The translations under genes were made by a program, and so were the position numbers. Shown here piece by piece: positions 58,263 through 60,488 of a stretch of DNA of 64,000 nt. Position 1 is the stretch's first letter, and each line of letters begins with the position of its first letter. Where the stretch lies: assembly GCA_034676785.1 (NCBI GenBank), contig JAXDDP010000034.1:16932-80931 (forward strand), in the 5' to 3' direction. The notes under the pieces are model-generated. The model was not told the DNA's origin, did not search any database, and saw nothing but the letters and a program-made list of their open reading frames with translations. The DNA comes from Anaerolineae bacterium (GTDB taxonomy: Bacteria; Chloroflexota; Anaerolineae; B4-G1; SLSP01).

Positions 58263-58772
58263 TCACCTAAGAGGAAGACCAAGATCGAAGTCCAGAGCGT
58301 CGAGGGACTCAACGATGTCCTCGGTCAGCTCAGCCGGAATCTTCACGGCGACCGGGAACTCGACCTTTAGGGGGTAGGTTACTGAGATGGGAACATCCAT
58401 GTGGATAGGGACTGCGAGGGTTTCGCTAATCGGGATAACAGCGTAGACAGGGACCGACACGGATTGGCGCCCCAGGAGCGGGATATTGATAGAGGTGCTG
58501 ACGACGGTATCCAACGTATAGTCCAGCTGGAACGGTACAACCAGCGTATCACTGAAGTTGAGGGTAGTCTGGATCGGGATTACCTCGTCCACGGCGATGG
58601 GCACGACGACCGGCTCACCCGCGAATGAGACCAGGGTCTCGCGAACAGTCGTGCGCGCTGACTCAATAGCCTGACCGACAGTCAGCAGCGTGCGTACCAG
58701 ATAGATGTTAAGGGCCAGAGAGGTCAGAACCAGAAGGCTGATAGCCAGGCGCCAGACGCGCATCCAGGTCAT
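58263..58772 (-). CDS. hypothetical membrane-anchored protein (one N-terminal TM, Val/Pro/Ile-rich repeats)
   Basis: No family recognised. ATGA overlap with the upstream PyrD-like gene supports that it is translated. Confidence 0.55.
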   Translation of the reverse strand: MTWMRVWRLAISLLVLTSLALNIYLVRTLLTVGQAIESARTTVRETLVSFAGEPVVVPIAVDEVIPIQTTLNFSDTLVVPFQLDYTLDTVVSTSINIPLLGRQSVSVPVYAVIPISETLAVPIHMDVPISVTYPLKVEFPVAVKIPAELTEDIVESLDALDFDLGLPLR

Positions 58773-59665
58773 GGACCGTCCTCCATCTCGGGTTCATCCG
58801 ATGACAAGAATCCCGTAGCCATCGGTCGCACAGCAGTTGGCTCTGCCAACGCCTGTGCAATGTGGTCGAGCAACGCCGGATCACGCCAGAGCAGGGCGTC
58901 GACCTGAACCGCAGCAGCGCCGAGGGTCAGGCAGGCCAGGGCATCCTCAGGAGAAGCGATACCCCCACAAGCGATCACGGGCACGGGCAGCTTGGATCCC
59001 CAACGCGAGAGTGTGTTTAGCAACAATGGGAAGAGCGCCTGGCCGTAGAGGCGCCCCCGGCTGAAGCGTGCGATGCCGGCATTGCCTTCATCGTCTCCGA
59101 CGGGCAGGACAGCCCGCGGTGGCGCCGTCAATGTGAGTGCATCGGCGCCCTGTCGCGCCAGGAAGGGAGCCAGATCCTCAACACGGTCAAAGGGAATCTG
59201 GGCGATGACCGGCAGATCGCCCTCCAGGGATGCAGCGGCGATGAGTTCCGCCGCCCGCTTTCGCGACACCCCTGCCGTGAACCCCAATTCGATGCCCCGC
59301 ACGTTTGCCACCGCCGAGAAGAGCGCGGCTGCCCGCGCAACCTCGGCAGTGCGGTTAGCCAGCAGATGCACGATGACGGGGGTTGCCAAGCGCTCCCAGA
59401 TCGCGCTGTAGTCCCGGATGACGCGGCGGGCTCCGGGGTTTGGCCAGCCCGTGTGAATAACAAACGTGTCGCCGTGGATAACGATCCGCTGGCCCTGAGC
59501 AACTCGGCGCGGCTGTAAGCTAACGGGGTTGGTGACGATGGCCCCCAGCCGCGAGACATCGACCAGATCACCATAGGCATCGCCGAATCCGAAGGCACCG
59601 CTAGCCGCCATGACGGGGACCTCGATAGCGAGCCCGTATTTGTGATTAGGCGCCAGCTCGATCAT
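58769..59665 (-). CDS. dihydroorotate dehydrogenase (class 1B catalytic subunit)-like TIM-barrel protein with substituted active-site residues
   Basis: PVMAASGAFGFG and VIACGGI...GAAAVQV match the PyrD fold. The NxSCPN and K/N ligand positions are not conserved (see findings). Start trimmed to ATG 59665. Confidence 0.65.
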   Translation of the reverse strand: MIELAPNHKYGLAIEVPVMAASGAFGFGDAYGDLVDVSRLGAIVTNPVSLQPRRVAQGQRIVIHGDTFVIHTGWPNPGARRVIRDYSAIWERLATPVIVHLLANRTAEVARAAALFSAVANVRGIELGFTAGVSRKRAAELIAAASLEGDLPVIAQIPFDRVEDLAPFLARQGADALTLTAPPRAVLPVGDDEGNAGIARFSRGRLYGQALFPLLLNTLSRWGSKLPVPVIACGGIASPEDALACLTLGAAAVQVDALLWRDPALLDHIAQALAEPTAVRPMATGFLSSDEPEMEDGP

Positions 59666-59681
59666 GCCGTGATCCGATCTC

Positions 59682-60488
59682 CTACAATGGAAGAAAGTCC
59701 AGCAGGTCGAAGACGGGACCGTCCACACAAGCGCGCTTTTCCCCATGGCGCGTGGTCACGCGACAGACATCGCAAACACCGCTGCCACACGGCATCGGGA
59801 CTTGTACGATGGCTTGTGCAAGGTCGGAATGGGGATGCAATCGCACCCGCTGAATAATCGTCGCCAGAGCGGGGTAACGTACGGGATCATGAGCCACGCA
59901 GATGCGCTCCGCCCACGCGATCAGTTCACACAGCCGGCCATAAGCGCGCTCCAACCCCGCGGGCGTCGAGCCCTCGGCTTCCAGAGGCCCAAGGTAACCG
60001 GCTGACCCGTCACGGGTCACAAGCGTCAACTCGAGCGAAGGCGGAAAACGCTGCGGAGAGGGCAATTGCGCCCGCGTTGCTGCTTCCAACACCAAGACGA
60101 CTGAGGGAGCTGCCTGAAACAACGGCCCCAAGAGAGGCAGAAACTCAGCCCCGGCAACCAAGAGCAGCCGGGCGATCGAGTGTCCCCCGGGACTCAAGCG
60201 AAAACCGCGGCCCAGAGGCCCCAGCACGTCGACTGTCGCGCCTGGCAACAGTCGCAGAGCGCTATGTCCGGGGGGCACGGCCGTCTCGAAACCGTCACCA
60301 CTGGTAGTTGCGGGAAAGAGGGGCTCTCGCACAGGTCCCCCAAGGTCGGCAAGCAGATACTCACCGGCCCTGGGGGTCTGCTCCACATCAAAGCGCACCT
60401 CCCAGAAAGGAGGCACGGGGCGTACGTTGCGCAGGGTCGCGGTCTGACGTCTAGCCAACGGTGTGGATAGCGGCTCCAAACACGGCAT
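59682..60488 (-). CDS. PyrK-like [2Fe-2S] electron-transfer subunit with degenerate flavin/NAD motifs
   Basis: C-terminal MPCGSGVCDVC...CVDGPVF cluster motif. An alternative TTG start at 60458 would reduce the overlap with lpdA to 8 nt. Confidence 0.65.
   Translation of the reverse strand: MPCLEPLSTPLARRQTATLRNVRPVPPFWEVRFDVEQTPRAGEYLLADLGGPVREPLFPATTSGDGFETAVPPGHSALRLLPGATVDVLGPLGRGFRLSPGGHSIARLLLVAGAEFLPLLGPLFQAAPSVVLVLEAATRAQLPSPQRFPPSLELTLVTRDGSAGYLGPLEAEGSTPAGLERAYGRLCELIAWAERICVAHDPVRYPALATIIQRVRLHPHSDLAQAIVQVPMPCGSGVCDVCRVTTRHGEKRACVDGPVFDLLDFLPL

Follow-up and report, generated by a model that had tools for sequence, protein, structure and literature searches.

What do two adjacent genes encode when they keep the outline of pyrK and pyrD and have lost most of the motifs of dihydroorotate dehydrogenase (DHODH)? 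This question is raised by a 64,000-nucleotide stretch of an Anaerolineae bacterium (contig JAXDDP010000034.1, positions 16,932 to 80,931; hereafter the window). Here a PyrK-like gene at 59682..60488 and a PyrD-like TIM-barrel gene at 58769..59665, both on the minus strand, encode the proteins that we call PyrK' and PyrD'. A preliminary description of this DNA held that the two are probably not the DHODH of the pyrimidine pathway and may form a neofunctionalised or pseudo-enzyme redox module, possibly associated with the membrane. Our analysis indicates that the pair is not the DHODH of the organism and most likely belongs to an old family of repurposed paralogues of class 1B DHODH (DHODB) that is spread throughout Chloroflexota.

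The motif changes reported earlier for the PyrD-like open reading frame (ORF), namely VTN, IHTGWPNPG, ELGFTAGV, IAQIPFD and LTLTAPP, are all present in the translation, which also contains ACGGI...GAAAVQV. PyrD' gave a weak, split match to the Pfam model DHO_dh (PF01180, 64 bits) and stayed below the class 1B PyrD models of NCBIfam (NF005574, 115.4 bits against a cut-off of 269; TIGR01037, 83.2 against 270). It had no match to NF005741 at E <= 0.01. Membership in the nitronate monooxygenases or the tRNA-dihydrouridine synthases was rejected, as those matches spanned only 40-50 residues of the phosphate-loop region and scored near or below the cut-offs. In a phmmer search of the PDB, PyrD' aligned to Lactococcus lactis PyrDB (1EP1_A, 75 bits) with the listed replacements visible.

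A profile of 45 PyrD' sequences was aligned by hhalign with 11 canonical class 1B PyrDs of Chloroflexota (probability 100%, E 4.7e-49, 278 aligned columns). The canonical residues given here were 100% invariant across the canonical set. In PyrD', K59 is replaced by N46, N83 by I70, N141 by G128, K179 by Q156, N206 by A181, T207 by P182, G228 by R205, S230 by Y207, G279 by D256 and T280 by A257; N183 falls in a gap, and S143-C144-P145-N146 fall in a gap of 10-11 residues. The catalytic N-x-S-C-P-N loop is therefore deleted together with its Cys, and the Asn preceding it is G128. The site of the deletion, E126-L-G128-F, is encoded at 59279..59290 on the minus strand. The motif N-x-S-[CS]-P-N was found in all 20 canonical Chloroflexota PyrDs examined. 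The Lys-D48 equivalent is Asn in PyrD', and the other Lys and Asn residues contacting FMN (flavin mononucleotide) or orotate are also replaced. The A-S-G element, R53, N76-P-G78, E126 and G234-G235 are retained. The profile alignment thus upholds the earlier alignment by eye, and neither the catalytic Cys/Ser nor the Asn and Lys residues were recovered.

The glycine elements around the FMN phosphate were also altered. G-G-I is kept, but G-G-L-S-G reads G-R-L-Y-G and V-G-T reads V-D-A, its Gly being D256; the C-terminal motif, previously described as kept, is thus not simply preserved. R205, Y207 and D256 occupy positions which we take to line the FMN phosphate site, and R205 and D256 presumably sit where TIM barrels hold the phosphate. 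These two residues may pair and fill the site. With D256 and G-R-L-Y-G in these places, FMN binding has probably been lost too. The fold itself is preserved: the AlphaFold2 (AF2) model of PyrD' (mean predicted local distance difference test score, pLDDT, 86.9) found 1EP3_A as its best Foldseek match (TM-score 0.79, E 7e-21), confirming the (beta/alpha)8 fold of the DHOD family.

PyrK' displays a comparable pattern. The sequences REPLFP, AGAEFLPL and CGSGVCDVC...C-x-DGPVF are all found in the ORF, in agreement with the preliminary description. The only Pfam match was the iron-sulfur (Fe-S) domain PF10418 (38.5 bits, cut-off 23.9), with no match to NAD_binding_1 (PF00175) or to a FAD_binding model. 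The best scores against the NCBIfam PyrK models (NF000796-NF000799) were 37.4 and 36.5 bits, compared with cut-offs of 219-314. The Cys ligands C234, C239, C242 and C254 (numbering of the 268-residue ORF; codons within 59727..59789, minus strand) form the pattern C-x4-C-x2-C-x11-C. They were invariant in 49 close homologues (alignment A2) and, together with the flanking Gly and Pro, in 25 diverse homologues (alignment A3).

When the PyrK' profile was aligned to NfnA (4YLF_A) and PyrK (5KSW_B), R-E-x-L-F stood opposite R-I-P-L-T, G-H-P-A opposite G-K-T-T, and A-E-x-x-L opposite G-G-G-V-G. The motifs R-x-x-[ST] and G-x-x-[ST] for flavin adenine dinucleotide (FAD) are not found in PyrK', which has R-E-P-L-F-P (F58 being at least 90% conserved) and G-H-[SP]-A at these positions. 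The loop for nicotinamide adenine dinucleotide (NAD) reads V-A-G-A-E-F-L-P instead of G-G-x-G-x-x-P. Distant PyrK' relatives likewise had no PF00175 match, while the canonical PyrK of the same genome has one. Judged from these alignments, PyrK' has lost the FAD Ser/Thr residues and the glycine-rich NAD(P) loop and has kept all four Cys. Its AF2 model (pLDDT 93.5) matched 5KSW_B/1EP1_B best (TM-score 0.73), so that, as was proposed earlier, both proteins keep the folds of DHODB subunits.

The genome of the window encodes a canonical DHODH elsewhere, so PyrD' is not its sole DHODH homologue. On contig C196 (locus L001, 60-3185), a gene fusion of pyrF and pyrE precedes pyrD, which is followed by pyrK. 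This PyrD displays NISCPNV and VKLAPN and scores 310.8 bits with NF005574 (cut-off 269) and 304.9 with TIGR01037; the PyrK displays GGGYGVAP and the four Cys and matches PF00175 at 32 bits. The G+C content of C196 (61.2%) agrees with that of the rest of the assembly (61.5%), and PyrD' occurs together with a second copy of canonical type in each of the 25 genomes from this GTDB family. Both observations make contamination improbable as an explanation. The pair is not the DHODH of this organism, and the proposal that it lies outside the pyrimidine pathway was borne out in this respect.

Some further features of these paralogues were noted. The pyrF-pyrE fusion is 473 amino acids long and joins orotidine monophosphate decarboxylase with orotate phosphoribosyltransferase, and the order pyrD before pyrK is unusual. 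The PyrDs of this genome, G311 and G330 formed a clade (support 100) that a long branch of 0.85 separates from the other class 1B PyrDs of Chloroflexota; the canonical PyrD of this clade scored only 34 bits against PyrD'. A third DHOD paralogue of 332 amino acids is located on contig C93 (locus L002, 1354-2352, minus strand). Its N-I-Y-H-I-P replaces N-I-S-C-P-N, it matches PF01180 at only 42.6 bits, and no pyrK adjoins it. It may belong to the uncharacterised group of "dihydroorotate dehydrogenase-like protein" NF005741 (PRK07565).

Relatives of the pair were numerous. A word-indexed search at E <= 0.001 returned 960 relatives of PyrD' and 924 of PyrK'; the best 120 of each displayed 50-88% identity and came nearly all from Anaerolineae metagenome-assembled genomes. 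Their database names included hypothetical protein, DHODH catalytic or electron-transfer subunit, nitronate monooxygenase and tRNA-dihydrouridine synthase. An exhaustive search of representatives at 50% identity gave 92 clusters at E < 1e-30. Among 118 full-length representative clusters, about 111 had the loop deletion and a signature consisting of [AF]-x-T-N-P / [VI]TNP, L-L-H-[TS]-G-x-P-N-P-G, E-[LVI]-G, [RK]-x-P, P-P-R, G-R-[LI]-Y-G-P and A-V-Q-[LV]-D. The PyrD' of the window reads VTNP, VIHTGWPNPG, ELG followed by the deletion, Q-I-P, PPR, GRLYGQ and AVQVD at these places. Its PyrK', adjoining upstream, fits the pattern of the PyrK' family, with R-x-x-L-F, no G-G-x-G loop and the four Cys. 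The family was defined in this analysis and is uncurated: no curated Pfam or NCBIfam model covers it, and no relevant account of a dead paralogue of DHODH or PyrK emerged from the literature searches. For Dehalococcoides, only PyrD 1B has been noted (PMC3224940).

A maximum-likelihood tree was calculated from 45 members of the PyrD' family and 21 canonical PyrDs of Chloroflexota, with a class 2 outgroup. The family formed one clade including the protein of the window (Shimodaira-Hasegawa-like approximate likelihood ratio test, SH-aLRT, 100; branch length 0.55), with tips 2-3 times longer than those of the canonical clade. Its early branches include the large Chloroflexia-type genomes G295 (5,801,598 bp), G036 and G012, and a PyrK' with the R-x-x-L-F signature is present in the single-contig genome G231 (5,258,541 bp). 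We infer that G295 and G231 are Roseiflexus- and Chloroflexus-type genomes. On this tree the PyrD' clade is deep and spans several Chloroflexota classes.

The genes are not decaying. Pairwise ratios of nonsynonymous to synonymous substitution (dN/dS) against three relatives were 0.10-0.13 for pyrK' and 0.10-0.11 for pyrD', compared with 0.11-0.16 for the neighbouring ubiE, 0.03-0.07 for lpdA and 0.09-0.10 for the gene of a 169-residue membrane protein (TM169) downstream. Both genes of the pair are thus under purifying selection. With dN/dS of about 0.1, the pair is a maintained module, and this supports the repurposed or pseudo-enzyme module of the preliminary description.

PyrK' and PyrD' belong together as a pair. 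Their genes lie side by side in the GTDB family of the window (here f1) and in G330, as well as in four additional metagenome lineages (35-41% identity), and a 206-kb ENA contig (P0278) encodes a natural PyrK'-PyrD' fusion of 570 amino acids. The C-terminal tail of this fusion, about 120 residues rich in Arg, Ser and Pro, looks like out-of-frame or frameshift read-through and not like a real domain. The clean co-occurrence test came only from another Anaerolineae family (f2), whose DHODH belongs to class 2 (405 bits to NF003652) and which therefore needs no PyrK. In f2 a shortened PyrK'' and a PyrD'' of 250 amino acids are encoded more than 400 kb apart. Within the phylum sample, PyrK'' was present in 14 of the 14 f2 genomes with PyrD'', and both were absent in the other five (5/5; Fisher p ~9e-5, uncorrected for phylogeny). 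A phylum-wide co-occurrence test with a broadened PyrK' profile (A3) was rejected, because the profile fails to separate PyrK' from canonical PyrK.

The f2 PyrK'' proteins are 227-249 amino acids long (L029, 5605-6354; L032, 4889-5572), and a deletion of about 30 residues takes part of the former NAD domain; their gene lies between that of a secreted 313-residue protein with wecB and a selD/thiL-like gene. In G295 (L031, C1:3566000-3576000, genes 4379-8801, minus strand) the order is pyrB, a pyrC-like gene for 502 amino acids, pyrK' and a class 2 pyrD. The PyrK' of this genome (261 amino acids) is degenerate in its motifs and has the four Cys, and the matching PyrD'' is encoded 2.6 Mb away. 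It looks as if the class 2 enzyme had displaced an ancestral pyrK-pyrD(1B) pair and left this arrangement as a trace.

Conservation in PyrD' was compared across 111 clusters. Most of the invariant positions hold structural Gly, Pro or Trp. The new polar residues found where the active site used to be were less constant: position 46 is N in 51% (N57/G15/A11), 71 is H in 63%, 100 is H in 66%, 156 is R/K in 69%, 184 is R in 68%, 205 is R in 69% (R77), 207 is Y/F in 74% (Y66/F16) and 256 is D in 79%. The corresponding functional and catalytic residues of canonical PyrDs are 100% invariant. With conservation of only 50-80% across the family, one conserved catalytic site looks unlikely, and selection would appear to be centred on the [2Fe-2S] cluster and the heteromer. 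The redox module of unknown substrate that had been put forward is still tenable, with the variable pocket counting against it.

We lean with moderate confidence towards an Fe-S-only heteromer that would have no DHODH activity and would carry single electrons, act as a sensor or provide a scaffold. According to PMC8097209 (citing Nielsen et al., 1996), the PyrD subunit of DHODB is needed for incorporation of the Fe-S cluster into PyrK. Because of this dependence, PyrK' and PyrD' would still form a PyrK-PyrD heteromer, which would explain why the gutted barrel was kept; PyrD' would mainly be the obligatory structural partner of the cluster-bearing PyrK'. The [2Fe-2S] cluster would be the sole remaining redox centre, so that the complex would neither oxidise dihydroorotate nor reduce NAD+. 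Most likely it would act as a one-electron Fe-S module, whether by carrying electrons, by sensing redox state or iron, or by serving another protein as a scaffold. We consider a two-electron flavoenzyme less likely than such a module, and we prefer non-catalytic roles of this kind to a new enzyme.

Several points weigh against this proposal. A carrier or sensor whose only centre is a [2Fe-2S] cluster needs a partner, and no such partner was found; the neighbourhoods of PyrK' and PyrD' differ between lineages. The loss of FMN and FAD is read from motifs, and the AF2 models are free of ligands. N46, H71, T72, H100, R184, R205, Y207 and Q254 are invariant within the window's own family, which would also fit a real ligand site, and the family-wide figure of 50-80% comes from a metagenome-derived alignment in which misaligned or partial sequences are possible.

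These pocket residues are also what speaks for a neofunctionalised enzyme, in which the remodelled pocket (an Asn, two His, two or three Arg/Lys, Tyr, Gln and Asp) would bind a new, probably anionic substrate by the cluster and carry out a one-electron or non-redox reaction. They are invariant in 45 f1 sequences at 49-88% identity, the pair is under purifying selection of the same strength as ubiE, and the consensus TNP / LLHTG / PPR / GRLYGP / AVQLD recurs family-wide. However, the same residues vary across the 111 clusters where those of canonical PyrD do not, no metabolic gene neighbourhood is conserved, and ligation of the cluster by four Cys leaves no open coordination site. We regard such an enzyme as the main rival, though a rather unlikely one. 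A flavoprotein oxidoreductase is considerably less probable, be it similar to DHODH or dihydropyrimidine dehydrogenase with unorthodox cofactor binding, or a true aberrant DHODH. The names of its homologues, the closeness of both folds to DHODB and the retained A-S-G and G-G-I elements would agree with it, but the catalytic Cys loop is deleted, the Lys48 equivalent is Asn, the Gly of V-G-T is Asp and the NCBIfam scores are below half of the cut-offs, and a bona fide pyrD/pyrK operon exists in this genome and its relatives.

It seems very improbable that the two genes are decaying relics, left over after a second DHODH had displaced an ancestral pyrK-pyrD pair. Nearly all functional motifs are gone and the branches are longer than in canonical PyrD, and in one Roseiflexus-type genome PyrK' still lies between pyrC and class 2 pyrD, in keeping with an origin by displacement. 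Yet dN/dS of about 0.1 contradicts decay, the frames are intact in 25 of 25 family genomes and in hundreds of metagenome homologues, the Fe-S Cys are invariant, the clade is deep and includes several classes, and the unlinked genes co-occur strictly. Beyond the Fe-S-only heteromer itself, we put forward as a tentative conjecture, doubtful as it stands, that the DHODB heterotetramer has a second, dihydroorotate-independent job which outlives the takeover of catalysis by another enzyme. Here that job might be [2Fe-2S] redox or iron sensing, electron carriage or scaffolding, or alternatively the remodelled barrel might be a new Fe-S-dependent enzyme. The partner may be linked to pyrimidine synthesis, since PyrK' stays in the pyrB-pyrC-pyrD(class 2) operon of the Roseiflexus-type genome.

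By fold and descent, PyrK'/PyrD' is a DHODB derivative. Its scores, catalytic loop, Lys/Asn residues, FAD motif, NAD domain and role in the genome all set it outside PyrD and PyrK, and of their defining features only the folds and the Fe-S site are kept. With class 1B DHODH (L. lactis PyrDB and PyrK; 1EP1-1EP3, 5KSW, 5UE9) it shares both subunit folds (TM-scores 0.79 and 0.73), the order of the genes (pyrK before pyrD), the [2Fe-2S] motif of four Cys in the C-terminal PyrK domain and the A-S-G, N-P-G and G-G-I elements of the barrel, and the tree places its origin within bacterial 1B PyrD. In contrast to that enzyme, it has no N-x-S-C-P-N loop, and the Lys48, Lys169 and Asn equivalents are replaced. 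The PyrD' family has G-R-L-Y-G for G-G-L-S-G and V-D-[STA] for V-G-T, PyrK' has Phe for the Ser/Thr of the FAD motif and A-E-x-x for the G-G-x-G NAD loop, and the genes lie outside a pyr operon here, with the real DHODH elsewhere in the genome.

Other systems share single features with the pair. NfnA, SudB and hydrogenase gamma subunits (4YLF_A, 5JCA_S, 9NEZ_C) have the same two-domain fold, similar to ferredoxin-NADP+ reductase, with a cluster domain, and 4YLF_A was the best PDB sequence match of PyrK' (58 bits with the profile). Unlike PyrK', NfnA-type proteins keep the FAD and NAD(P) motifs, and their partners are GltD-like or hydrogenase subunits and not a PyrD-like barrel. NF005741 (PRK07565) also comprises DHOD-family paralogues without the class 1 Cys motif, but the candidate on C93 differs from PyrD' in its length of 332 amino acids, its retained N-I-Y-H-I-P loop and its lack of a PyrK partner. 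A conceptual analogue, not a homologue, is presumably the dihydroorotase-like PyrC' of the Pseudomonas aspartate transcarbamoylase, which we take to be a dead pyrimidine-enzyme paralogue kept as a structural subunit beside an active one. The fold and the pathway step differ, and PyrK' keeps a redox cofactor site.

If these assignments are right, hundreds of Chloroflexota proteins are mislabelled as DHODH subunits, nitronate monooxygenase or tRNA-dihydrouridine synthase, reactions which we hold to be impossible for them. Counting PyrK'/PyrD' as DHODH would make metabolic reconstructions of Anaerolineae and Chloroflexia wrong. That a two-subunit enzyme was stripped to its Fe-S site and yet long kept as a pair suggests that the DHODB scaffold has a function so far overlooked. 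The family is wide and misannotated, and the repeated retention of dead DHODB pairs hints at a second role of this scaffold. Chloroflexus- and Roseiflexus-type cultured carriers appear to hold family members, which makes the question experimentally tractable.

The membrane association proposed for the pair concerns TM169, a bitopic protein of 169 amino acids encoded at 58263..58772 (minus strand). The 4-nt ATGA overlap between its gene and pyrD' is real, as had been described. TM169 has a single N-terminal hydrophobic segment (about residues 8-30) and a conserved domain, about 130 residues long, in which V-P-I and I-P-I motifs abound. It had no match in Pfam or NCBIfam, and a homologue search found it in close relatives only. 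The chain rluB-cmk-lpdA-pyrK'-pyrD'-TM169-ubiE-carboxyltransferase is kept in f1 at 50-88% identity and only there. In most f1 loci TM169 is present with an overlap of 4-8 nt, and in three of 15 (L008, L012 and L013) it is missing. Outside f1 the PyrK'/PyrD' genes adjoin trpS/dtd, an EamA transporter, glycosyltransferases, gidB or Band_7. Conservation of the trio in relatives thus extends to most f1 loci, and the linkage to TM169 and lpdA is absent beyond them. The coupling to a small membrane protein therefore stands within f1 and fails elsewhere, and membrane association is at most a family-level add-on. As defining partners, lpdA, ubiE and TM169 were rejected; the neighbourhood would be a family-level gene arrangement and not a defining part of the system.

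A Band_7/SPFH gene for a membrane scaffold is divergent from and adjacent to PyrK' in three other lineages. Such genes, divergent and adjoining or at most 5 kb from PyrK', were located at L060 4122-5168, L061 4021-5076 and L032 3801-4835, and further ones near PyrK' at L029 445-1350 and L058 from 11881. A link of Band_7/SPFH to the system of the window was rejected, since tblastn found no homologue in its genome.

The gene starts were revised by comparison with homologues. The longest ORF of PyrK' begins at ATG 60488 and encodes 268 amino acids, while its homologues begin with M-x-[KR]-x-Q-T-A-T; the start is thus most probably TTG 60458, which gives a protein of 258 amino acids (59682-60458) and a gene sharing 8 nt with the end of lpdA, stop codon included. 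For PyrD' (298 amino acids) the homologues place the start at ATG 59665 and not at 59746, where the longest ORF (58769-59746) begins. The PyrD' gene therefore does not overlap that of PyrK', and a 16-nt spacer with GGAG separates the PyrK' stop from ATG 59665.

All genes of the surrounding chain are on the minus strand, in the order rluB (62560-63528), cmk (61844-62563), lpdA (60451..61857), pyrK', pyrD', TM169, a gap of 143 nt, a ubiE/menG-type methyltransferase gene (57421..58119; TIGR01934, 197.7 bits) and a carboxyltransferase operon. Successive genes within 60451-63528 overlap by 4 nt (rluB/cmk), 14 nt (cmk/lpdA) and 8 nt (lpdA/pyrK'). No terminator-like site stood out in 57300-63700, where six were found and 4.1 expected. 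The lpdA gene, which lies directly upstream of the pair as reported before, encodes a bona fide dihydrolipoyl dehydrogenase (TIGR01350, 540 bits, cut-off 409). No E1 or E2 partner of it was found within the window, and a second lpdA-like gene (37% identity) is located on contig C95 of the same genome.

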